A program made the position numbers and the translations under genes. Shown here piece after piece: positions 1 through 32,000 of a stretch of 32,000 nt of DNA. The number at the start of each line of letters is the position of its first letter. Position 1 is the stretch's first letter. The notes beneath the pieces are model-generated. The model saw nothing but the letters and a program-made list of their open reading frames with translations. It searched no databases and was not told the origin of the DNA. The DNA is from a virus, in IMG/VR virus record IMGVR_UViG_3300045988_122038, positions 13,749-45,748 of that record, one strand, 5' to 3'.

Positions 1-114
1 AATTTGTGTGTCATATTGATTATCTTAGAAATTGACATTATCAAGCAAAATATCAGAGACTCAAAAGAAATGAGAGAAGTTGAAGAAATGGCAAAAAAGA
101 GGGATAAAAAATGA
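1..114 (+). CDS. 3' end of a hypothetical early protein (partial)
   Basis: Frame 1 is open from the window edge to TGA at 112-114, which overlaps the next start codon (ATGA). Confidence 0.4.
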   Translation, partial: NLCVILIILEIDIIKQNIRDSKEMREVEEMAKKRDKK

Positions 115-419
115 GTGGTGGAAGTTATTGTTATATGTTTAACCGAATTGAAGAAGAATATGTAGGTAGAATGTTTGATTCGCAATTAAATAGCATGATG
201 AAAGATTTAGTTGAAGTTCTACATGATTTAGAATGGTGGCAATCATGTGATTGTGATGAAAAACGTTATCGTGAAAAAGTTACTAAGTTCAAAAAGAAAT
301 GGTTCAAACAAACTAAGATCGATGTACAAAAGCAAATTGAATCAGAGTTTGAAAGAACAAAGAATGAGTTGCTAAAAGAATTTGATTATTTGAAGGATGA
401 TGAGAATGAGCATAACTGA
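111..419 (+). CDS. hypothetical early protein (102 aa)
   Basis: ORF track. A purine-rich stretch (agaggg) lies 7 nt upstream. ATGA-coupled to the upstream ORF. No recognisable domain. Confidence 0.6.
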   Translation: MSGGSYCYMFNRIEEEYVGRMFDSQLNSMMKDLVEVLHDLEWWQSCDCDEKRYREKVTKFKKKWFKQTKIDVQKQIESEFERTKNELLKEFDYLKDDENEHN

Positions 420-636
420 ATATGATATTCATGATGAATCAATTAAGAGTGGATGCATTCAATTGAAAGCTCATATTTACAGACATCCATACTCAAAGTA
501 TTTTTTTGAATCAATTGATAGTATGAATAAAATCATTGATTACATTGTTAAATTGGAACGCGAGAATCTAGGATTGAAAGAATATAAGAAAAACCAGGAA
601 AGAGCAAACGAAAGAAGATATCGTAGTGGTGAGTAG
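397..636 (+). CDS. hypothetical early protein (79 aa; start ambiguous among ATGs at 397, 400 and 406)
   Basis: ORF track. Overlaps the preceding gene; 'gaagga' lies just upstream. Confidence 0.5.
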   Translation: MMRMSITEYDIHDESIKSGCIQLKAHIYRHPYSKYFFESIDSMNKIIDYIVKLERENLGLKEYKKNQERANERRYRSGE

Positions 637-689
637 TCCTGGCATAGAGGTTCTGTTGTTGAAAAAATAAATAGATTGGAGAAAGTGGA

Positions 690-926
690 ATGGTTAATAT
701 GAAGGGATATCAACCAAAAGAAATTGATAGAAGCAAAATAAAAGTGCCTGAATATTTGAAAAAAAATAAAGAGCCTGAATATGAATACAAGGTAGCGTGG
801 GCTAATGAACGTAATAAAGCGTATATCGAATATTTATTGAATAATGGATGGAGCATTTTTAATGTACAAATTCCTTTGATTTATTTTAGAAAGGAAAAAA
901 AGGATGTTAAAGAAATACAGGATTAA
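690..926 (+). CDS. hypothetical early protein (78 aa)
   Basis: ORF track. 'ggagaaagtgg' lies upstream of ATG 690 (alternative ATG at 699). Confidence 0.55.
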   Translation: MVNMKGYQPKEIDRSKIKVPEYLKKNKEPEYEYKVAWANERNKAYIEYLLNNGWSIFNVQIPLIYFRKEKKDVKEIQD

Positions 927-1050
927 GTATATCAAAGACAATAATATTTGTGTGATGGAAGTTATGGAGGAATCAAAAAGCATGGCAATGTATAAGTTCT
1001 ATATGAAATTTCCATCATGCAGCATTGAGGAAATTGAAGAAATAGCATAG
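904..1050 (+). CDS. hypothetical small protein (48 aa), not in ORF track
   Basis: Hand translation MLKKYRIKYIKDNNICVMEVMEESKSMAMYKFYMKFPSCSIEEIEEIA. It fills the gap up to the SD of the next gene exactly. Confidence 0.4.
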   Translation: MLKKYRIKYIKDNNICVMEVMEESKSMAMYKFYMKFPSCSIEEIEEIA

Positions 1051-1058
1051 GAGAGAAG

Positions 1059-1526
1059 ATGAGTAAAACGGATTATGAAGAATATGTAGATGTTCAGGTG
1101 GATACATTAATTAAAAAACTTGAAATGTTCAAGATCTATGAAAGAAAGTTTAAATCGTTGGATGGAATCTTAAAGGATTTGGAGGTTCGCAAAAAAGAAT
1201 TTTCAGATCCAAAGTCACCATCATTTGAACAAAGACTAGATTCAAAGAAAAACAAGGACATTACAAATGATGTTCTTGTAAAGTTTATTTCAAAAGAAAA
1301 AACACTTGAAGATGATAAGAATCTAATCTTCGGAAAGATGAGAGAAATTGAAACAATTATTGACCTTATTCCGGATGATGATATTCGTTTATATATGAAA
1401 CGTCATTATATCAACGGAGAGTCATTTGAGAAGCTTTCAGGAGAAAAGTTCTGTAGCAGAATGAAAATGTATTACGCAATGAAAAAAGAGCTTAAAAAGC
1501 TCGTTATAGGGGATTTAAGTAAATAA
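1059..1526 (+). CDS. sigma-70 region-4-like HTH protein, candidate late-gene activator (RinA/ArpU/DUF1492-like by position)
   Basis: The C-terminal segment IPDDDIRLYMKRHYINGESFEKLSGEKFCSRMKMYYAMKKELKKL fits the region-4 HTH pattern. SD 'aggag' lies 6 nt upstream. Confidence 0.45.
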   Translation: MSKTDYEEYVDVQVDTLIKKLEMFKIYERKFKSLDGILKDLEVRKKEFSDPKSPSFEQRLDSKKNKDITNDVLVKFISKEKTLEDDKNLIFGKMREIETIIDLIPDDDIRLYMKRHYINGESFEKLSGEKFCSRMKMYYAMKKELKKLVIGDLSK

Positions 1527-1539
1527 GAGAGGACGAACA

Positions 1540-1827
1540 ATGCAGAAAGTAATCAGATCATACATTTTTGATGGGAAAAGTTTTGAAGAATTGCAAAAAG
1601 TGTTAGATGAAGGCTATGTTGTTGTTATGGCAAATAAGGTTGGAAAATGTGATGACGCTATTGAATACATCCTCGAAAAGAAAAACGAAGAAGTCTCGAT
1701 TGATGTTATTGTTAAAGGATTAAGAAAATTTGCAAAAAGCCTTTTTGGAAACGATGAACAAACAGAGTGGGTTAAGACAGGAATTTTACAAGCGGCAAAG
1801 CTCATCGAAGTAGGTCAAATAAGATGA
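1540..1827 (+). CDS. hypothetical early protein (95 aa)
   Basis: ORF track; 'agagagga' SD-like sequence upstream. Confidence 0.6.
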   Translation: MQKVIRSYIFDGKSFEELQKVLDEGYVVVMANKVGKCDDAIEYILEKKNEEVSIDVIVKGLRKFAKSLFGNDEQTEWVKTGILQAAKLIEVGQIR

Positions 1828-1894
1828 GATTAATTGCATAAATATGTGGTTGATTTTTTTACAAAGTTTTTATTTTATAAAAGTGTTACAAAGT

Positions 1895-1914
1895 AGCCTA
1901 TTTACTAGGCTTTT
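1895..1914 (+). terminator. weak intrinsic terminator-like hairpin after the first early operon
   Basis: AGCCTA (1895-1900) / TAGGCT (1906-1911), 5-nt loop, then TTT. This is also the first block of the 60-nt repeated element. Confidence 0.4.
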
Positions 1915-1955
1915 AAAAGGTTTGTAGTTAGTCTGATAATATATAGTTATCGGAC
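1896..1955 (+). repeat. copy 1 of a ~60-nt conserved non-coding element (partner at 6070-6130)
   Basis: Hand alignment. Block 1, GCCTATTTAnnAGGCTTTTAA, matches 19/21. Block 2, AGTCTnATAAnATATAGTTAnCnGAC, matches 22/26 with a 1-nt gap. Confidence 0.55.
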
Positions 1956-1971
1956 ATAGGAAGGAGTTCAG

Positions 1972-2136
1972 ATGATAAACAAAATTAAATGGTTTTTTAA
2001 AAGATTATTCTGTAAGCATGAATTTACTTGGTGTGTAAAGAATGAGATGTTTCATTCTCTCAGAGGTGAGACTCAGTATCTTGTGTGTTTGAAATGCGGG
2101 AAAGTGAAAGATACAAGATTTGTTGAATTTGAATAA
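1972..2136 (+). CDS. small zinc-ribbon-like protein (54 aa), not in ORF track
   Basis: AAGGAG at 1961-1966, 5 nt before the ATG. Translation MINKIKWFFKRLFCKHEFTWCVKNEMFHSLRGETQYLVCLKCGKVKDTRFVEFE carries CxH...C and CxxC pairs. Confidence 0.5.
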   Translation: MINKIKWFFKRLFCKHEFTWCVKNEMFHSLRGETQYLVCLKCGKVKDTRFVEFE

Positions 2137-2161
2137 ATGTGTGCTTTATAGGAGTGATATT

Positions 2162-2470
2162 GTGAGAAGGTTTTTAACGGAAGTGAAAAAGTTTTTTCTG
2201 ATTCATAATACAGAAAGTTTATTTGTACAATGGGAAGATTATTTTGTATGTGTTTATAAATCAGGTGAAACGCTTATAAGAGATGAACAAGGATTAAGAC
2301 TTCATAAGAAACATATTTGTGAATCACAATTCAAAAGTTTATATAGAAAGTTTTTAGATAATGAATTTGAATGCTTCAATTATGAAGATATAAAGAATAG
2401 ATGTAATAATTTTTGTCTAAATTCAGAAGAAGAATATAAAAAGTTTTTAAGAATATTTAGTGACTTGTAA
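2162..2470 (+). CDS. tandem paralogue 1 of a four-member family (unknown function)
   Basis: The in-frame GTG at 2162 is preceded by AGGAG (2150-2154). The track start at 2120 overlaps the zinc-ribbon ORF. The C-terminus ICESQFKSLYRKFLDNEFECFNYEDIKNRCNNF is near-identical to paralogue 2. Confidence 0.6.
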   Translation: MRRFLTEVKKFFLIHNTESLFVQWEDYFVCVYKSGETLIRDEQGLRLHKKHICESQFKSLYRKFLDNEFECFNYEDIKNRCNNFCLNSEEEYKKFLRIFSDL

Positions 2471-2490
2471 AAGTTTTAGGAGTAAAGGAA

Positions 2491-2916
2491 ATGAAAGACA
2501 AATTACCAAAGTTTTTAACAGAAAAACATATAAATAAAAAATATATAAATACAGGTGATGAACTTAATAAGCTGTTTATGAACAATAAAAAATATATAAA
2601 TATAGGTTATGAACTTAATAAACTGTTTATGATCAATAATACACAAAGTTTATTTGTACAATACGGAGATCGTGTTGAATGTGTTTATATGTCATATGAA
2701 AATGAAAAGTTTGAAAGGTGTCATTATGAAAGCAACGGTATACTCGTTATTAAGCATTATATTTGTGAATCGCAATTCAAAAGTTTATATAAAAAGTTTT
2801 TAGATAATGAAATTGATTGCTTAAACTATGAAGACGTAATGAATGGATGCAATAAGTTTTATCTAAATTCAGATGAAGATTATAAAAAGTTTATTAGAAT
2901 ATTGAATGATATGTAG
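2491..2916 (+). CDS. tandem paralogue 2 (141 aa) with an internal 17-aa duplication
   Basis: SD 'aggag' at 2479-2483. Shares LFVQ...CVY and ICESQFKSLYKKFLDNE...NYED...LNSDEDYKKF with paralogue 1. Confidence 0.65.
   Translation: MKDKLPKFLTEKHINKKYINTGDELNKLFMNNKKYINIGYELNKLFMINNTQSLFVQYGDRVECVYMSYENEKFERCHYESNGILVIKHYICESQFKSLYKKFLDNEIDCLNYEDVMNGCNKFYLNSDEDYKKFIRILNDM
2533..2634 (+). repeat. 2 x 51-bp in-frame tandem duplication (47/51 identical)
   Basis: AATAAAAAATATATAAATACAGGTGATGAACTTAATAAGCTGTTTATGAAC at 2533-2583 versus 2584-2634. Encodes NKKYINTGDELNKLFMN / NKKYINIGYELNKLFMI. Confidence 0.85.
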
Positions 2917-2938
2917 AAAGTTTTTTAGGAGTGATGAA

Positions 2939-3226
2939 ATGGATACAAATAAGTTTTCTTACAAAGAAGTTTTTGTGAAGTATGATAATGTACAAATTAG
3001 TGTTGTTTGTTCTAAGATGGTTGAAAAAGTTTTTGAATACAATGCGCATGATGATGAAGATGTGCCTGTGAATTATGTTTATTATGTGAAGAAAGAAAAG
3101 TTTTCTCAGTTGCTGGAAAAGTTTTTTGACGGTTCGATTCTATGCAAGCATGAAAAAGAATCTCAAAAGTTTTTTCCAACGTCTCAAGAACAATTAGAAA
3201 AAGTTTTTCTAATCCTGGATAAATAA
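2939..3226 (+). CDS. tandem paralogue 3 (divergent)
   Basis: ATG 2939 lies 7 nt after AGGAG (2927-2931). Shares the pattern FVKYDN.QISVVCS ... KEKFSQLLEKFFD ... KVFLILD with paralogue 4. Confidence 0.6.
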   Translation: MDTNKFSYKEVFVKYDNVQISVVCSKMVEKVFEYNAHDDEDVPVNYVYYVKKEKFSQLLEKFFDGSILCKHEKESQKFFPTSQEQLEKVFLILDK

Positions 3227-3244
3227 GCTTCTGGAGGTGTTGGA

Positions 3245-3565
3245 ATGTTTGAAAACAAGTTTTTATATACTGATATTCATATAAGTTATAAAGATACAAC
3301 AATAGTTGTTGTATGTTCAGATGATAAAGAAGTTATGTCTTTAGAAACAGATGGGTCTAAAAAATTATGGTATTACAGAGCCAATAAAGAAACGTTTAAT
3401 AGTTTGGTTGAAAAGTTATTGAATAGAGATATTGGAAATGGTCACAAAAAGGATTCAAAGTATTTTAAACTTTATTCAGGATCAAACTTAATGAAAGTGT
3501 TTAGTATTCTAAACTATATAGAATATAATACGATAAATGAGAAACTTCTTAAATTGAAAAAGTGA
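3245..3565 (+). CDS. tandem paralogue 4 (divergent)
   Basis: SD 'ggagg' upstream. Pattern ISYKDTTIVVVCS ... KETFNSLVEKLLN ... KVFSILN. Confidence 0.6.
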   Translation: MFENKFLYTDIHISYKDTTIVVVCSDDKEVMSLETDGSKKLWYYRANKETFNSLVEKLLNRDIGNGHKKDSKYFKLYSGSNLMKVFSILNYIEYNTINEKLLKLKK

Positions 3566-3729: not shown

Positions 3730-4299
3730 TTAAAATGGAAATTCAAACTCTTCAAGCATTTCTGTAGGTGCTGCTTTCTTCTTCTTTTTTGGTGCAGCTT
3801 TTTCAATGCTCATTTTTTCAACTTTTCCATCATTGTATATATAGCTTTCTTGTAATTTGTTTCTACTAAACAAGTCTATAGTTTTAGAAGTTGTGTTATA
3901 AGTTGCTAGCAAGCTTTTTGATCCAGGTTTACAGATCTTAAAAAGATCCTTGTTTAAAATATCAACATAGCATTTATAAATTTTGAAGAAATAACAGATA
4001 TCTTTTATTTCTTGTATATCTGGTATACATAACTCTTTTTTTGCTTCTGTATTGTAATATATTTGAATATCATAATTGAAAAGCTTGTCAAGATCATGAG
4101 CGACGAACAACCTTAAGTCATTTGTTTGAGCTGCTGCATACATGCATTTATTATGATCAAACTTAAAACCATGATCTTTTAAAACTTTTTCAGTTGAAGC
4201 GCTGGGAGTTCCTAACGCTTCAACATAAATGTGCGGTTTTTTCCGCTCATTTGTAACATAATAATTAAAATGGTTTCGTTCACGCTTCCACATTGTCAT
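3730..4299 (-). CDS. hypothetical protein (189 aa) with a Lys-rich linker and an acidic aromatic C-terminal tip ...EMLEEFEFPF
   Basis: SD AGGAGG inside the upstream gene (translational coupling). The C-terminus resembles SSB / T7 gp2.5-type acidic tails that end in Phe. Confidence 0.7.
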   Translation of the reverse strand: MTMWKRERNHFNYYVTNERKKPHIYVEALGTPSASTEKVLKDHGFKFDHNKCMYAAAQTNDLRLFVAHDLDKLFNYDIQIYYNTEAKKELCIPDIQEIKDICYFFKIYKCYVDILNKDLFKICKPGSKSLLATYNTTSKTIDLFSRNKLQESYIYNDGKVEKMSIEKAAPKKKKKAAPTEMLEEFEFPF

Positions 4300-4510
4300 T
4301 TTTAATACCTCCTAAAATATCCAAGGTATATAAAGTATTTGCAAGTAGCCAAAGTTCACGCGGTTCAAGCATCCAAGCAATGGTATCTAAACCATAGTTA
4401 AGATCATATAAACCGTTTAAATGTTTTGTAATTGTGTAAGGCTTGCAGCTAGATCCATTTAGTCGATCTAGTTTTTTTTCTGTAAACTCAATATATTCTT
4501 TATTATTCAT
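4280..4510 (-). CDS. hypothetical protein (76 aa)
   Basis: ATG at 4510 lies 8 nt after GGAGG. The track start at 4525 lacks an SD. Overlaps the downstream gene by 20 nt. Confidence 0.65.
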   Translation of the reverse strand: MNNKEYIEFTEKKLDRLNGSSCKPYTITKHLNGLYDLNYGLDTIAWMLEPRELWLLANTLYTLDILGGIKNDNVEA

Positions 4511-4512
4511 TT

Positions 4513-4785
4513 TTAAAACCTCCATTCATTATCTTTAAAAATAGTTCTAACAAGTGCATAAAGTTCGTTGCTTACTTGTTTAGAATCAACTAAAAGTTGA
4601 TCATAATAAACGCGTATAACTTTTTCACTTTCTATATATGCAAGATCATAAAAAAATGAATTAATATGATCCACTAAACATTCATATAAAAAGTCATATA
4701 CGACAAAATTACCAGAAATAAGATCATTCATATATGATCTAATTCTTGCATATTTATGCAATAATTTAATTTCAAAAAGTTCCAT
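4513..4785 (-). CDS. hypothetical protein (90 aa)
   Basis: SD AGGAGG 7 nt upstream of ATG 4785. Confidence 0.65.
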   Translation of the reverse strand: MELFEIKLLHKYARIRSYMNDLISGNFVVYDFLYECLVDHINSFFYDLAYIESEKVIRVYYDQLLVDSKQVSNELYALVRTIFKDNEWRF

Positions 4786-4802
4786 TGTTTAACCTCCTAC
4801 AA

Positions 4803-4925
4803 TTAATAAATAAGTGGTAGTAAAATATTTAAAAGGCCCAATATTATACCTATAATCAATGTAGATGTGCACGCTGCTAAATACAATTTTAAAAATGCAA
4901 GTATGAGCACCTTGACGGCGCTCAT
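4803..4925 (-). CDS. possible 40-aa hydrophobic membrane peptide, not in ORF track
   Basis: Translation MSAVKVLILAFLKLYLAACTSTLIIGIILGLLNILLPLIY. It fills the 160-nt gap between two operon genes, but there is no clear SD. Confidence 0.35.
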   Translation of the reverse strand: MSAVKVLILAFLKLYLAACTSTLIIGIILGLLNILLPLIY

Positions 4926-4945
4926 CTTGTCAAGATCTTTGCGTG

Positions 4946-5428
4946 TTAACATACTTTTTTACCTTTTGAAACAACTTTTTTAATTTCTCTAAAAATTAAA
5001 TGTGTGAGTTTTTCTTCCGCTTGGCGTTCCGTGAATTTACTTTTTTCGCTTTCGCTTTCTTCCAAAATTATCGCAAGATCTTCAACGGCGCTTCTATTGT
5101 AGTAGTAACAAGTATCTAGAACGCTTGGGAGTCCTTGACACCATTCAAAAAATAAATTCTCAATACTCATGTTTCTTTTGTCGTATTTAACTTTTTCATC
5201 ATAGAAACAATCATAAATAGCGTAAGCATATACGCTGAACATGTCGATTTGTCTTCCGTGTTTTGTATCTTCTTCAAACTTTTCAATATATGCGTATTTA
5301 TCGTAACCGGTAAAATCTACATTATCACATACATACTTTTTAATATTTTTTACAGCTTCTTTTGAATAAGTCTTTAACATTTTCTTTTTTAACCCGTCTA
5401 TGGTAGAATAGAAAAGCAATATATACAA
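4946..5428 (-). CDS. hypothetical protein (160 aa from TTG; 144 aa if from the internal ATG at 5380)
   Basis: AGGAGG (reverse complement of 5440-5445) lies 11 nt upstream of the TTG at 5428. A 9-bp hairpin (5391-5399 / 5428-5436) spans the start region. Confidence 0.6.
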   Translation of the reverse strand: MYILLFYSTIDGLKKKMLKTYSKEAVKNIKKYVCDNVDFTGYDKYAYIEKFEEDTKHGRQIDMFSVYAYAIYDCFYDEKVKYDKRNMSIENLFFEWCQGLPSVLDTCYYYNRSAVEDLAIILEESESEKSKFTERQAEEKLTHLIFREIKKVVSKGKKVC

Positions 5429-5516
5429 GACGGGTTTAACCTCCTGAATATTGTGTATATTTGCCGTTGTTGTGAACTCCTGGAAGCGGCCAAACTTGAA
5501 AGGGGTTCACGTTTTT

Positions 5517-5669
5517 TTATTTGTTTATATCCTTTTCAATTAGATCCAGGATATAAGCACTTTTTGATTCAACTTTATCAAGCTGGTTTAAGACTCTTTC
5601 ATTACTTAAAGGAACTAAAACCGTTACACGTTTATAATGACTTTTTTTATATTTGTTGTCATAAACCAT
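5517..5669 (-). CDS. ribbon-helix-helix (CopG/Arc-like) DNA-binding protein, 50 aa from ATG (59 aa if it starts at ATA 5696)
   Basis: Hand translation MVYDNKYKKSHYKRVTVLVPLSNERVLNQLDKVESKSAYILDLIEKDINK. The basic beta-strand YKRVTVLVP followed by two helices is typical of RHH proteins. The strong SD AAGGAGGG (reverse complement of 5703-5710) is correctly spaced only for the in-frame ATA at 5696. Confidence 0.55.
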   Translation of the reverse strand: MVYDNKYKKSHYKRVTVLVPLSNERVLNQLDKVESKSAYILDLIEKDINK

Positions 5670-5713
5670 CTTGTTTAGTTTTGCTTTTTCTTCTATGTTT
5701 ATCCCTCCTTTTC

Positions 5714-5742
5714 TTGACTATTTAAATAAACGGCGCTATAAT
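5714..5742 (+). promoter_or_regulatory. near-consensus sigma-A-type promoter firing rightward
   Basis: TTGACT (5714-5719), 17-nt spacer, TATAAT (5737-5742). Confidence 0.55.
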
Positions 5743-5785
5743 TTATTTGCTTATTTAGTGACGCTATTCATTGACTTTTATATCT

Positions 5786-5798
5786 ATGAGTAAGCGCC
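5786..5798 (+). repeat. direct repeat core ATGAGTAAGCGCC, copy 1 (similarity extends to ~38 nt)
   Basis: Identical 13-mer at 5922-5934. Followed by the hairpin TAGGCTT...AAGCCTA. Confidence 0.7.
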
Positions 5799-5921
5799 CT
5801 TTTTTTATGTCTAGGCTTATTTTAATGTGAAGCCTAAACAATAACTTATTTAATAAACTTATAAACTTATCCATATTATCAAGTCCAATCTATCAATTTA
5901 AAGTTGTCTTGGCTTGGCTTT

Positions 5922-5934
5922 ATGAGTAAGCGCC
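5922..5934 (+). repeat. direct repeat core ATGAGTAAGCGCC, copy 2
   Basis: 136 nt from copy 1. Followed by the hairpin GTGTAAGC-TTAACTT-GCTTACAC. Confidence 0.7.
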
Positions 5935-5971
5935 GTTTGTTTTGTGTAAGCTTAACTTGCTTACACTTAAT

Positions 5972-5999
5972 ATTATATACAGTTATAACCGTATGTCAA
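5972..5999 (-). promoter_or_regulatory. near-consensus sigma-A-type promoter firing leftward toward the RHH operon
   Basis: On the - strand: TTGACA (reverse complement of 5994-5999), 16-nt spacer, TATAAT (reverse complement of 5972-5977). Confidence 0.5.
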
Positions 6000-6069
6000 T
6001 AAAAAATAATAATATTTTTTTTGCTCATTTTTTCAAAAAGCTTTTTGTTTTTGAAACGTGCACGCAAGC

Positions 6070-6130
6070 GCCTATTTAAAAGGCTTTTAAGCGTGTTCGG
6101 TTCTAGTCTTATAACATATAGTTAACAGAC
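6070..6130 (+). repeat. copy 2 of the ~60-nt conserved non-coding element
   Basis: See copy 1 (1896-1955). Here it lies 20 nt upstream of the strong terminator at 6151. Confidence 0.55.
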
Positions 6131-6150
6131 TATAAAATATATACATGTAT

Positions 6151-6175
6151 GGACGTTGTGAACGTCCTTTTTTTT
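6151..6175 (+). terminator. strong intrinsic terminator
   Basis: GGACGTT (6151-6157) / AACGTCC (6161-6167), 3-nt loop, T8 (6168-6175). Confidence 0.75.
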
Positions 6176-6399
6176 ATGTGGTCTTGCACCAGATAAAGGA
6201 AGACAAGTAGCACGCTTGAACGCATGGGACGGGTGCATATTATCCAATGTATGTTGGAGCTGTTGGAGTTTGCTATATATAAGAACGCGTACGCACGTTC
6301 TATTAATAGAGCTATGGCCATGGTATGAAACAACGCTTTCAACAAGTCATGTTGAAACATCTTTCAACACAATAATAAATATGTGAATATCATATGACT

Positions 6400-6600
6400 G
6401 AAGCCGTTAACGGGGCGGTGTGGTGGTAGCTGCATAGGTTTGATTTTTAACCCTGAAAGCGCCCAGGGCTGGGATCAGATCAGCATAGACCCCCCTATCT
6501 TTCAAAAGTTTTTTGTGTTTTGGGGAACGGCGTGGGGAGTTTAAAAAAACCGGGTCATGAGTGCATGAGAGGGGGTAAAATCTGAATTTCTTCATTTTGT
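6400..6600. other. candidate cos-site / structured-RNA region (GC-rich core of the ORF-less gap)
   Basis: G and C runs (GGGGCGGTGTGGTGG at 6412, C6 at 6490-6495, GGGGAACGGCGTGGGGAG at 6522, G5 at 6571-6575) lie directly upstream of HNH-TerS-TerL. The cleavage position cannot be read from the sequence. Confidence 0.25.
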
Positions 6601-6611
6601 ACAGTGTACAA
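6597..6611. promoter_or_regulatory. perfect 7-1-7 palindrome TTGTACAgTGTACAA (operator/activator site), copy 1
   Basis: The 19-mer ATTTTGTACAGTGTACAAA (6594-6612) recurs exactly at 30291-30309. In both copies a TATTnT hexamer lies 13 nt downstream (here 6625-6630). Confidence 0.55.
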
Positions 6612-6705
6612 AGAAAAACCGTGATATTCTGTAGTCGTGAAGATTGGAAAACATCTTCTAGAACAAACAAGGTAGTTCTTGGATTGTTTCATTTTAGTGC
6701 CCGTT

Positions 6706-6740
6706 GAAAAAGACCTGTGGAAACATGGGTCTTTTTCATA
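6706..6740. terminator. bidirectional terminator-like hairpin upstream of the HNH gene
   Basis: AAAAAGACC ... GGTCTTTTT with a 12-nt loop. Confidence 0.35.
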
Positions 6741-6828
6741 TCACTGCATTCAAAGTATTTACTGTTAGTTTTTGTCGTCCTTTAAATCTGTTAACTGTAG
6801 TTATGGTCAAAACTTTGAATGTAGCGAT

Positions 6829-7215
6829 ATGAAAAAATATTATGGTTCAGAAGCAACAAAAACAGGTGCTAGAAATTATGCTAGAAAATTTTACTCAAGC
6901 AAGGCTTGGGAAAAGAAAAGCAAAGCGTATAGAAAGGCACATCCACTTTGTGAAAGATGTTTGAAAAAAGGTATCTATACCAGGTCGACTTGTGTGCATC
7001 ACAAAACACACATTGACCAGGACAACTATAGAGATGTACACATTCTATTTGGCGATTCCAATTTGGAAGCGTTGTGTGACTTATGTCATGCTGAAGAACA
7101 TTCAAAACGTAAACCATCTTTTGAATTTGATGAAAAAGGAATGCTTATAGGATGTGGAAGGGAGGATGATGAATGCAAAAAGGAGCATGGAAAAAAAGAA
7201 TCAATTCACAACTAG
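6829..7215 (+). CDS. phage-associated HNH endonuclease (packaging accessory)
   Basis: Motifs WEKKSKAYRKAHPLCERC, VHHKTHI, NLEALCDLCHAEEH. First ATG in frame; sits upstream of the terminase genes. Confidence 0.85.
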   Translation: MKKYYGSEATKTGARNYARKFYSSKAWEKKSKAYRKAHPLCERCLKKGIYTRSTCVHHKTHIDQDNYRDVHILFGDSNLEALCDLCHAEEHSKRKPSFEFDEKGMLIGCGREDDECKKEHGKKESIHN

Positions 7216-7547
7216 AGAATTTAGGCACATTTTCTCCTGAATATTCGGTTGCGGTTGATTCACTTGCAGATGCATTGGCCCAATATGATTCAACAATGAA
7301 GCAATGGAGAGATTCAAGTAAAGCAAATGGCTACAAATCACTACAGATGGTTGTTGAATATACCAATAAAGGCGGTGCAACGAATTTATCACGCTCACCA
7401 TACTACATTATTACCGTTCAATTACGTGATCAGATCATGAAGTACTGCAAAGAACTTGGCTTGTCACCTACTTCACTTTCAAAAACAACAGAAGTATCCG
7501 GAAAAAAAGGTGATGAATTGGATGAGTTCATGAGCAGATTTAAATGA
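7173..7547 (+). CDS. terS: terminase small subunit (P27-family-like)
   Basis: About 120 aa, immediately upstream of and ATGA-coupled to TerL. SD 'gggagga'. The N-terminal GTFSPEYSVAVDSLADA pattern is typical of this family. Confidence 0.7.
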   Translation: MQKGAWKKRINSQLENLGTFSPEYSVAVDSLADALAQYDSTMKQWRDSSKANGYKSLQMVVEYTNKGGATNLSRSPYYIITVQLRDQIMKYCKELGLSPTSLSKTTEVSGKKGDELDEFMSRFK

Positions 7548-13452: not shown

Positions 13453-13849
13453 TGTATATTGCGATATGTCACAACTTGGGCCTGAAATCAGAAAGATGAT
13501 TCAAGAATATAAAGAGCATTCTTTGGCGCAGATTGACAGAGCAGTAGAAGAAACTACAAAAGATTCTAAAGACATTGTTAAAGCTAAGGCCAATGTAGAC
13601 CATAGAAACACGCGCAGAAAGGGAAAATATAAAAGGTCTATAACATATAAGATAGAACGTGAATTAGCTCATACACGCGGTGTTATTTATGCGAGTGGCC
13701 ATGAATACTCATTAACTCATTTATTAGAAAACGGACATAATTTATGGAATTCTCCTAGACGTACACGTGCATTTAAGCACTGGAAAGATGGAGAAACAAA
13801 CGCAATCAAGGAACTGCCAAGTTTAATCGAAAAATATTTGAAAGGATAA
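13439..13849 (+). CDS. HK97 gp10-like tail component
   Basis: TTG start 6 nt after GGTGA. Size and position fit, and the segment VEETTKDSKDIVKAKANVD...GKYKRSITYK fits the family pattern. Confidence 0.5.
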   Translation: MATNDVYCDMSQLGPEIRKMIQEYKEHSLAQIDRAVEETTKDSKDIVKAKANVDHRNTRRKGKYKRSITYKIERELAHTRGVIYASGHEYSLTHLLENGHNLWNSPRRTRAFKHWKDGETNAIKELPSLIEKYLKG

Positions 13850-27846: not shown

Positions 27847-27925
27847 GGGTATTTTATGAGTATTATTCGAGTATTAAATTATTTATTACGTAAACATATA
27901 ATTAAATCGTAAAGAGGTGGTTGAA

Positions 27926-30572: not shown

Positions 30573-30686
30573 ATGAATGATGAAGAAAAAGTAGTAGATT
30601 ATGAGAATCTATCAGAAGAAGCAAAAGAAGAATTAAGCAATGGCAAGGAAGAAGGTGTAGATGAAGAATGTCATATTCCGGATTAG
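30573..30686 (+). CDS. possible 37-aa acidic peptide between holin and endolysin, not in ORF track
   Basis: SD GGAGGA 6 nt upstream. Translation MNDEEKVVDYENLSEEAKEELSNGKEEGVDEECHIPD. Overlaps the endolysin start by 19 nt. Confidence 0.4.
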   Translation: MNDEEKVVDYENLSEEAKEELSNGKEEGVDEECHIPD

Positions 30687-31744
30687 CAACATATTGTAAC
30701 AGAACATCACAACATTATGATGGTCGTTTTGGATATAAGGTTTGTAAAATCACTCCACACTACATGGCTGCGGCATGGAGTGGTAAACAATGTGCAGATT
30801 ATTTTGCACGAAATACTCGTCAAGCATCTTCCAATTATTGTATTGGAATTAATGGAGACATTGCATGCAGTGTTGATGAAGAAAATGCTGCATGGACAAG
30901 TTCAAATTGGTTGAATGATTCTCAATCAATTACAATTGAATGTGGAAACATTAATAACGCAACTGGAGAAATGACGCAAGCTACTTGGGATAGCTTGGTG
31001 AATCTATGTGTTGATATTTGTAAACGATATGGATTTAGATTGAACTATACAGGAAATTCTAGCGGATCATTGACTATGCACAAAATGTTTGCGGCTACAT
31101 CATGCCCTGGAGCATGGTTGGAAGCACGTATGCCACAATTGGCTAATGAAGTAAATGCAAAGTTAGATGGAAAGGTTGAAACACCAAAACCTACAACTCC
31201 AAGTGGAGAAAAATATTCAGTTAATTTACCTATCTGTACAAACACATTGAGTGTGAATTGCTACGGAACTTCTACAGTTAAAAAAGGTGATTGGTCAGGT
31301 GTCATTGGTAGAGTAATTAAAGGAACAAAATATCCATATCGTGTTGATCGTAATGGAGTAGCGATTGGATGGACTAATGATGCTGGTATTGATACAGACC
31401 CTCATGTGCCAGTTGGCGCCACACAGTCTAGCGCAGAAGCTATCGACCAAATTTTGCATGAAGGTAGCTATGTTACATCTGTACATATGAAAATTGGTAA
31501 TCAAGGCTTGAAAAAGATTGGTGATGATTTATGCTGCTACTTGTCTAAATTAGGCGGTTGGTTTCCTATTCGTATGGTAGATAAAGTACCAAATTCAGAT
31601 GGATATAATGACAATGTACTGCATACCACAAATGCAGTAGTCTACGTATCTAGAATCAGAGTCGATGCAGTGAATGTTCAAAAGAATATTGTCAAGATTG
31701 GTGGTGTTTGGGTTGATCCAACACCGTTAACAGAAATTGAATAA
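30668..31744 (+). CDS. endolysin: N-acetylmuramoyl-L-alanine amidase (Amidase_2/PGRP-type) plus C-terminal wall-binding region
   Basis: Segments CKITPHYMAA, ASSNYCIGINGDI, ENAAWTSSNWLNDSQSITIECGN and SCPG. Last phage gene. Confidence 0.9.
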   Translation: MSYSGLATYCNRTSQHYDGRFGYKVCKITPHYMAAAWSGKQCADYFARNTRQASSNYCIGINGDIACSVDEENAAWTSSNWLNDSQSITIECGNINNATGEMTQATWDSLVNLCVDICKRYGFRLNYTGNSSGSLTMHKMFAATSCPGAWLEARMPQLANEVNAKLDGKVETPKPTTPSGEKYSVNLPICTNTLSVNCYGTSTVKKGDWSGVIGRVIKGTKYPYRVDRNGVAIGWTNDAGIDTDPHVPVGATQSSAEAIDQILHEGSYVTSVHMKIGNQGLKKIGDDLCCYLSKLGGWFPIRMVDKVPNSDGYNDNVLHTTNAVVYVSRIRVDAVNVQKNIVKIGGVWVDPTPLTEIE

Positions 31745-31765
31745 AATAAAAAAGCAAAAAAATGT

Positions 31766-31794
31766 TTGACATAATATGGTTTATACTGTATTAT
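31766..31794 (+). promoter_or_regulatory. sigma-A-type promoter candidate upstream of the tRNA
   Basis: TTGACA (31766-31771), 17-nt spacer, TATTAT (31789-31794). Confidence 0.4.
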
Positions 31795-31946
31795 CTTTCT
31801 TGCGTGAAGCAGTGAGGTACATTTTGGGGTACAAAACAACAAAGTGCTATCAAAACACGTAGATAATGTTGTAAATAACATCAAATATCAATTGATATGA
31901 GGTATTTATATAATCCCCTCATCTGCTCCATTTAAAATTAAATATT

Positions 31947-32000
31947 GGTCCAGTGGTGTAGTGGTTAACATGCCTCCCTGTCACGGAGGAGATCGTGGGT
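31947..32000 (+). tRNA. tRNA-Asp (anticodon GTC), 5' part; truncated by the window end
   Basis: GGTCCAG-TG-GTGT-AGTGGTTA-ACAT-G-CCTCC-CTGTCAC-GGAGG-AGATC-GTGGG-T folds as acceptor, D arm, anticodon arm and the start of the T arm. Close to the Bacillus tRNA-Asp sequence as I remember it. Confidence 0.9.

Follow-up and report, generated by a model that had tools for sequence, protein, structure and literature searches.

In this study, we analyzed a 32,000-nucleotide (nt) stretch of viral DNA (positions 13,749 to 45,748 of IMG/VR record IMGVR_UViG_3300045988_122038; hereafter, the window), focusing on two consensus promoters, P(−) and P(+), which face each other over the leader of a leftward operon with a ribbon-helix-helix (RHH)-like repressor gene. 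With moderate confidence, we read this locus as the control head of an accessory operon driven by the host RNA polymerase, in which an early burst of expression would be restrained by autorepression and by a convergent antisense brake. Comparison of related loci supports both promoters, a terminator directly past P(+), a match between operator and repressor, a small gene in the leader, a non-AUG start of the repressor, and a long-range RNA helix, and it likewise supports a convergent, antisense-type layout associated with the RHH operon. The window is a segment of a low-GC siphophage genome, and we regard the phage as an uncultivated cos-type siphophage of the gut or mouth. The elements of the locus are listed below, with Shine-Dalgarno sequence abbreviated as SD and open reading frame as ORF.

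5999-5994 (TTGACA), 16-nt spacer, 5977-5972 (TATAAT), minus strand: P(−), 12/12 consensus, driving the leftward operon; predicted start ~5965-5966.
5714-5742, plus strand: P(+), TTGACT-17-TATAAT, 11/12 consensus; predicted start ~5749.
5978-5993, no strand assigned: near-palindromic P(−) spacer TACAGTTATAACCGTA (palindrome I14), the putative repressor operator from class pairing in 24 loci.
5944-5966, minus strand: stem-loop GUGUAAGC/GCUUACAC at the 5′ end of the leftward RNA; the stem is unvarying and the loop variable in sequence and length (22 distinct sequences).
5874-5764, minus strand: sORF36, an ORF of 36 aa in the leftward leader, MDKFISLLNKLLFRLHIKISLDIKKGRLLIDIKVNE.
5808-5840, no strand assigned: hairpin within sORF36 (inverted repeat I19).
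5749-5806, plus strand: predicted antisense RNA of ~57 nt, with a hairpin at ~5760-5798 and T7 at 5800-5806.
5929-5942, minus strand: 5′ arm of the long-range helix, pairing with 5724-5737.
5724-5737, minus strand: 3′ arm of that helix, inside the P(+) spacer (inverted repeat I6); a U-rich stretch follows it in the leftward RNA.
5517-5709, minus strand: RHH-like repressor gene, 59 aa, with SD AGGAGGG (5709-5703), start ATA (5696-5694) and stop (5519-5517).
6151-6175, plus strand: strong intrinsic terminator (hairpin 6151-6167, then T8) called by the terminator scan; it is conserved in all loci, with one-sided stem changes that retain pairing as U.G.

Relatives were collected by scanning IMG/VR with the HNH endonuclease protein encoded to the right of the locus, which gave 63 related loci, mostly from one metagenome. 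Window positions 6015-7000 were common to all relatives, and the DNA leftward of this was shared by only some. The presence of the module was scored in the 52 loci with enough upstream DNA; the face-to-face promoter pair was found in 23 of these sister phages and was absent from 29. One further partial locus was included, giving the set of 24 module loci compared below.

A promoter scan returned P(+) and P(−) as the two best sites within 4500-7500, bearing out the hexamers and spacings given in the first-pass annotation. The predicted starts (~5749 on the plus strand and ~5965 on the minus strand) face each other at a distance of 216 nt, and an AT-rich tract precedes P(−). Across the 24 loci, the P(−) hexamers were unvarying with one exception (TTGGCA in L038), whereas the spacer varied. 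Similarly, a P(+) −35 hexamer of TTGACT, TTGAAA or TTGAAT was followed after 17 nt by TATAAT in 24/24 loci. The DNA between the promoters occurred in four versions that can hardly be aligned, namely A1 (window type), A2 (L012), A3 (L018) and A4 (L055). Nevertheless, the −35 to −35 distance was 286-295 bp in all four, and the promoter spacing was constant across the 24 loci although spacer sequences and intervening DNA differ. Fixed hexamers within changing spacers are the signature of working promoters. The opposed firing and the likeness to convergent-promoter and antisense switches, both proposed at first pass, thus persist in four divergent versions, as judged from the comparison of relatives. 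An invertible segment between 14-nt inverted repeats was also considered and was ruled out, as every locus was collinear.

The match between operator and repressor is our strongest result. Four classes of the putative beta-strand of the repressor paired with four classes of the P(−) spacer in 24/24 loci, and each 16-nt spacer class is a palindrome centred between the −35 and −10 hexamers. The beta-strand KRVTVLVP was found with spacers having a GTTATAAC core, RKYE[IF]R[VI] with spacer TATRCATGYATATGYT (TGTA at the 3′ end in L039), KRYIVQIR with TATAGTYATATATGTT, and KRYIFQVR with TTACACATATAATGTT. The leader versions A1-A4, which lie between the gene and the promoter, reassort freely; L038 combines the third beta-strand class (KRYIVQIR) with a window-type leader, and L007 and L012 have the same protein class with different leaders. 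Since the class pairing holds despite this reassortment, it argues for autorepression at P(−), in which the RHH-like repressor would act at the spacer palindrome at 5978-5993, the putative operator.

The repressor appears to start at AUA or AUU, as judged from its alleles. In the window, the ATA codon lies 6 nt after AGGAGGG and 7 nt from the GGAGG core; ATT stands at that place in 21/24 relatives. Most alleles have no ATG ahead of the beta-strand, their sole Met being near the C-terminus, and a 6-nt indel upstream of the internal ATG of the window preserves the frame. AUA or AUU is therefore the only start supported by an SD. The SD itself, AGGAGGG on the minus strand at 5709-5703, is 4 nt from the −35 hexamer of P(+), as had been noted at first pass. 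More distant homologues of the repressor use ATG, and it is uncommon for a repressor gene to have a conserved non-AUG start.

The leftward leader, which had been described as a leader of about 270 nt before the RHH gene, was found to contain a conserved small ORF and is thus not simply non-coding. One ATG-started minus-strand ORF of 36-40 aa occupied the same place in 24/24 loci, although that of L034 is frameshifted at an A-run and reads 35 aa. Between the window and L050, sORF36 showed 11 nt differences, of which 10 were synonymous and 1 was non-synonymous (proportion of synonymous differences, pS, 0.50; of non-synonymous differences, pN, 0.011). Against L055, pS was 0.74 and pN was 0.16, and the variable sites were distributed over the codon positions as 6/3/13. 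These patterns indicate that sORF36 is under purifying selection. The ORFs of A2 and A3 were less constrained (pN/pS ~0.6-0.7), have better SD sequences, and encode peptides without apparent homology to that of A1. The small-ORF peptides are charged, Lys/Ile-rich and amphipathic, with no membrane-spanning hydrophobic stretch, and sORF36 showed no match in PHROG or Pfam. It ends 68 nt ahead of the next start codon. In L050 and L060, the hairpin at 5808-5840 combines a GG>AA change with an apparently compensating CC>TT change, and another hairpin occupies this position in L055; however, the GG>AA and CC>TT changes are also synonymous or Arg>Lys in sORF36 and thus do not represent clean RNA covariation.

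The rightward RNA is probably short, ~57 nt instead of the ~430 nt that had been expected for a transcript ending at 6151-6175. Directly past P(+), a hairpin and a T-rich run (T7, T8 or TTTTTATTT, depending on the version) were observed in all four versions, 50-58 nt after the predicted start, with the hairpins beginning about 10-15 nt past that start. The first 65 nt folded with −9.9 kcal/mol in the window, −21.3 in L012, −22.6 in L018 and −12.1 in L055, and the terminator scan independently called the L018 hairpin (2931-2963, 14 pairs, then T7). As had been claimed, a strong terminator is found at 6151-6175. All sister phages share its DNA, even those lacking P(+), and in ArdA-type phages it stands after the terminator of a small helix-turn-helix (HTH) gene. 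This sharing indicates a general insulator that was not purpose-made for the rightward RNA. Any read-through from P(+) would first meet the hairpin at 5944-5966, which resembles a weak terminator on the plus strand (its T tail is poor in the terminator scan), and then the strong 6151 terminator, which would halt it before it reached the probable cos region and packaging genes.

No ATG-started ORF of at least 25 aa was found on the plus strand within 5749-6175, in agreement with the first-pass view that the rightward RNA has no SD-preceded ORF. Three TTG-started ORFs (32-45 aa) occur there, with no GGAGG-type SD ahead of them by eye. The predicted antisense RNA (5749-5806) is complementary to codons 23-36, the last 14, of sORF36 plus its stop and, by the predicted RNA ends, finishes 40 nt from the repressor SD. 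When trans targets were searched for within the window, its own locus alone stood out. As a separate observation, a strong plus-strand terminator (GTGAACTCC...GGGGTTCAC then T7) lies at 5472-5518, right after the stop of the leftward RHH gene. Its orientation is wrong for the leftward operon, and it falls within a block, 5371-5564, that is shared by A1 and A2 cassettes.

Two direct repeats of ~38 nt had been proposed in the overlap of the two transcripts. Their 14-nt core, TATGAGTAAGCGCC, was found exactly at 5785 and 5921 and nowhere else even with 2 mismatches; the expected count was 0.08, and 0/100 shuffles reached 2, so the repetition is not due to chance. The repeat is shorter than proposed, however, spanning 22 nt with 91% identity (20/22 positions; copy 1, 5785-5806; copy 2, 5921-5942), and it is specific to version A1, the window type, so that it cannot be taken as a general feature. 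The hairpin said to follow each copy was found at 5808-5840 and 5944-5966. Copy 1 is the 3′ half of the antisense terminator, and copy 2 overlaps the 5′ arm of the long-range helix in the leftward RNA; by their placement, the repeats are RNA elements. The recurring AAGCGCC motif (inverted GGCGCT at 5733-5738) was confirmed in number, with 6 copies in the window against 0.85 expected, but the copy at 6066, which is included in this count, is variable among relatives. The further recurrence of TTATGAGTA at 27854-27862 is within chance, since 18/100 shuffles gave at least 2 hits. The AAGCGCC repeats were also considered as RHH sites and were rejected, because repeats and arms do not follow the RHH allele and the P(−) spacer palindrome does. 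The proposed binding of the RHH protein to the direct repeats fails on the same comparison of alleles.

The arms of the long-range helix occur in three mutually incompatible versions (ACGGCGCU / AGCGCCGU; GCGGUGCU / AGCACCGC; GACACGG / CCGUGUC). The duplex energy of the arms was −16 to −23 kcal/mol within a locus and −5 to −15 kcal/mol across types. With the arms in register, 9/12 pairs show changes in both partners, and pairing is seen in 95% of cells compared with 36-50% in slid controls. The arms were tested separately, as RNAalifold on the whole-leader alignment missed most of the helix, MAFFT having placed the arms out of register. Both arms are present only on the leftward transcript, and the one-sided arm variants AGCGUCGU and AGCGCUGU form G.U pairs on the minus strand; the window itself has one outer C.A mismatch that would suit the plus strand better. 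These results support a covarying long-range helix in the leftward RNA, which closes a ~190-nt domain holding the small gene and is followed by U-rich sequence.

A reading to which we give low probability is antisense-controlled attenuation in the style of pIP501 or pT181. The helix with its U-rich tail, or a second GGCGCU copy pairing with the same 3′ arm, would terminate transcription upstream of the repressor gene; at the same low probability, the antisense RNA would then choose between a short RNA with sORF36 only and the full operon RNA. In support of this, U-rich sequence follows the GC-rich 3′ arm in all three helix versions (GUUUGUUUAAAU, UUUCACUUUUUC, UUUUAUCAAU). In the window and L012 types, one 3′ arm is also served by two competing 5′ copies. 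In addition, the window-type antisense RNA has a 3′ half that also matches the 5′ arm region (20/22 positions), and RNAIII-induced attenuation in the pIP501 leader of 329 nt provides a precedent. However, a helix closing ~190 nt is no canonical intrinsic terminator, the scan found no compact minus-strand terminator, and the second-site complementarity is missing from the other three versions. Furthermore, the repressor and cargo genes have no other promoter, so substantial read-through would be needed anyway.

A type I toxin-antitoxin-like pair, in which sORF36 would encode a harmful peptide and the short convergent RNA would be its antitoxin, appears quite unlikely. The txpA/RatA and bsrG/SR4 pairs of Bacillus prophages have a convergent, 3′-overlapping arrangement. 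The locus resembles them in its convergent transcripts, its 3′-end overlap (the last 14 codons) and an antisense RNA with an intrinsic terminator, and the selection on sORF36 would also fit. However, the peptides are Lys/Ile-rich and amphipathic without a hydrophobic membrane segment, the window-type and L012-type peptides are apparently not homologous, and sORF36 is the first cistron of a long operon, with no separate toxin mRNA and with no PHROG or Pfam match of its own.

We give equally little credence to the idea that P(+) is no working promoter and that its hexamers are kept only as the complement of a structured part of the leftward RNA that lies between the SD and the 3′ arm of the helix. 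The P(+) spacer is indeed constrained by the RNA helix on the other strand, its −35 is only 4 nt from the SD, and its transcript is deduced from sequence. Nevertheless, TATAAT and a TTGA-type −35 stand at exactly 17 nt in four versions with different flanks, and each version has its own distinct hairpin and T-run at the right distance, which the leftward RNA would not need. Finally, P(+) aims at the HNH and terminase genes across up to three terminator-like hairpins, but a late promoter of the lambda pR′-tR′ style awaiting antitermination, the alternative raised at first pass, is highly improbable, as the P(+) cassette is swappable and missing from 29/52 sister phages that share the same late region (6015-7000, 85-95% identity), the probable genome end separates P(+) from the late genes, and the sigma-region-4-like DUF1492 protein (1059-1526) is a more usual candidate for a late regulator.

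For the favoured reading, an autorepressed early burst with an antisense brake, we propose the following course. The consensus P(−) would fire once the DNA is inside the cell, giving a leftward RNA that carries, in order, the terminal stem-loop, the 36-aa gene, the repressor with its poor AUA/AUU start, and the interchangeable cargo. The repressor would build up slowly, bind the palindrome between the −35 and −10 hexamers of P(−), and turn the operon off; with shut-off delayed in this way by a slowly accumulating repressor, expression would be a pulse. P(+), 216 nt downstream of P(−), would make the ~57-nt self-terminated RNA, which has complete complementarity to the end of the 36-aa gene. 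As long as P(−) is active, P(+) should be suppressed by polymerases crossing it; when P(−) is repressed, P(+) would be freed, and its RNA would pair with leftover operon RNA. This pairing would trigger cleavage or block expression, thereby making the shut-off sharp and tight, and the antisense RNA probably adds a second brake in this manner.

Several points weigh against this proposal. The transcripts, the binding, the promoter interference and the antisense effect are all inferred from sequence. The operator-repressor match could partly reflect linkage, most loci being from one metagenome. The repressor gave no Pfam hit to any RHH family including Arc, no PHROGs match and no Protein Data Bank (PDB) sequence hit at E up to 10, and foldseek found no match for its monomer model. 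That AlphaFold2 (AF2) model (predicted local distance difference test score, pLDDT, 76.5) has residues 21-31 extended and helices at 33-41 and 45-58, and hhalign against a manually entered CopG sequence gave a weak match (E = 0.03, 47% identity over 30 columns). The predicted fold is thus consistent with RHH but not proven. The window hairpin past P(+) is bulged and, at −9.9 kcal/mol, was missed by the terminator scan; with so weak a stem, read-through to 5966 or 6175 is possible. The antisense RNA covers no ribosome-binding site, so its proposed effect on expression is not self-evident, and the pulse model assigns no role to the long-range helix.

A more extended view is offered tentatively, at a probability well below that of the autorepressed burst. 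The whole head (P(−), operator, stem-loop, sORF36, antisense RNA, helix and AUU-started repressor) may be a portable timer of anti-defence cargo, with the antisense RNA and helix forming an RNA switch between an sORF36-only RNA and the full operon RNA, and with the small protein itself taking part as an effector or as a toxin-like brake.

The locus was then compared with known systems. A search with blastn against GenBank phages gave no match to window 5400-6900, and Rfam returned nothing relevant at gathering and permissive thresholds. The immI region of P22 has, like this locus as predicted, a strong promoter with an internal operator and a short self-terminated antisense RNA from a convergent promoter inside the operon. 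In both, a small autorepressor is the first regulatory gene and limits the early burst (an RHH protein in P22; RHH-like, and proposed, here), and the module sits in a hypervariable accessory slot. The P22 antisense RNA, sar, is reportedly 68-69 nt long, and the operator is said to lie inside Pant, in accounts ascribed to Liao et al. 1987 and Wu et al. 1987. The accessory slot is described for the P22 ant moron with arc, mnt and sar (PMC2629481). The two systems differ in that we detected no sequence relationship to Arc and saw no second repressor here. Moreover, our antisense RNA would cover the 3′ end of a small upstream gene, whereas sar covers the ribosome-binding site of the effector. In addition, the repressor here starts with AUA/AUU, the host is a low-GC Gram-positive bacterium, and the cargo is interchangeable, some sister phages having a different, ArdA-carrying cassette in this slot.

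In plasmid pIP501, CopR repression of the sense promoter also relieves interference on the antisense promoter of RNAIII, which acts in a 329-nt leader (PMC4981023). Convergent sense and antisense promoters, ~300 nt from the sense promoter to the SD of the regulated gene, and a Gram-positive setting are shared with our locus, as is, by our inference, a small repressor of the sense promoter that thereby frees the antisense promoter. However, CopR comes from a separate upstream unit and has its binding site upstream of the −35 hexamer, RNAIII is 136 nt long and acts by attenuation (a rival reading here) on a replication initiator, and the pIP501 leader has no coding gene, whereas the leader here holds sORF36. 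In pMV158, CopG (~45 aa, RHH) is the first operon gene and represses its own promoter, as the repressor would here, and a ~50-nt terminated antisense RNA (RNAII) comes off the opposite strand. Unlike here, RNAII targets the translation start of rep, the CopG operator overlaps the −35 hexamer, and there is neither a small upstream gene nor a convergent promoter upstream of the repressor gene.

In pCF10, the convergent prgQ/prgX promoters are ~220 nt apart and work by interference plus antisense RNA, with a small peptide gene at the 5′ end of a long operon. The promoter distance and the place of the small gene are like those here; however, the pCF10 repressor is on the antisense transcript and responds to peptide pheromones. 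The CopA/tap/repA system of R1 likewise combines an antisense RNA with a small leader ORF upstream of the regulated gene, but CopA blocks the start of that ORF and acts through translational coupling, whereas the ORF here ends 68 nt before the next start. By analogy, the locus shares the logic of P22 immI and pIP501 without being a member of either family by homology. It differs from both in its 3′-end antisense target, its non-AUG start, its covarying helix, and a repressor placed on the regulated transcript downstream of the target.

The genes around the control head were examined in the window and its relatives and are arranged as follows.

111-3565, plus strand: rightward genes.
3730 to ~5700, minus strand: leftward gene block.
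3730-5380, minus strand: cargo genes of the leftward operon, encoding 144 aa (ATG 5380), a 49-aa membrane peptide, and 90, 81 and 189 aa.
From the right of the leftward block (~5700) to the left of the HNH gene: ORF-poor gap of 1.1 kb.
6829-7215, plus strand: HNH endonuclease, followed by small terminase, large terminase and portal.

The cargo proteins of the window showed no known domain and no Pfam match. The 144-aa family has 405 homologues, among which no Pfam domain was found; there was also no PADLOC match, and AF2 modelling with foldseek against PDB and BFVD gave nothing. Its distant homologues sit in other contexts without the regulatory module. The first gene after the repressor differs between phages and is of at least 5 unrelated kinds: the 144-aa gene of the window, an acidic protein of 160-184 aa, another acidic one of 156 aa, a pair of 75 aa and 234 aa, and a protein of 219 aa. 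In module-less phages, the same slot holds ArdA (PF07275, E = 1.3e-34) together with a small HTH gene in divergent orientation; ArdA cassettes were found in 18/52 loci, and 11 loci were of further types. Recombination joints recurred among relatives at 4952, 5371, 5564, 5933 and 6013. As compared across L001-L063, the slot at 4953-6013 is a cassette-exchange hotspot. The presence of ArdA in the same slot of sister phages, not among the genes of the window, makes an early counter-defence role of the operon plausible by analogy. We also observed that the 144-aa gene starts at ATG 5380 and not at TTG 5428. Its only good SD, AGGAGG (5445-5440), is parted from the ATG by a 9-bp hairpin (5391-5399 / 5428-5436), and the gene may have a split ribosome-binding site joined by folding.

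Elsewhere in the window, GC rises to as much as 0.475 at ~6400-6560, ~300 nt upstream of the HNH-terminase genes. Since six related contigs terminate at 6503-6543, inside this GC-rich patch, a cohesive genome end is probably located at ~6400-6560. A 31-nt inverted repeat (6732-6762 / 6806-6836), whose arms are 87% complementary and separated by 43 nt, surrounds the start codon of the HNH gene at 6829; it may regulate translation of HNH or belong to the packaging site. The DUF1492 protein, which is sigma-70 region 4-like and is encoded among the rightward early genes, is a candidate activator of late transcription. At the right end, the 358-aa protein at 30668-32000 is an amidase-type endolysin and not an integrase, a tRNA gene begins at 31947 and runs off the window end, and no integrase was seen in the 32-kb window. 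A genome scan for relatives returned a Solobacterium metagenome-assembled genome and a Waltera genome, the only leads to a host.

Right after entry, phages need a short burst of expression of their anti-restriction and other counter-defence genes, and to our knowledge, the timing of this burst is poorly known in temperate phages of Gram-positive gut and oral bacteria. The locus described here would represent a compact design of four layers, comprising a self-repressing promoter, a weak start codon that could serve as a delay, a convergent antisense RNA, and a structured RNA enclosing a micro-gene. Its operator and repressor appear to have co-diversified into at least 4 specificities, and the four operator-repressor pairs could be useful as orthogonal engineering parts. 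Because this head is combined with swappable, unrelated first cargo genes and alternates with ArdA cassettes, the locus marks a hotspot that might yield new counter-defence genes.

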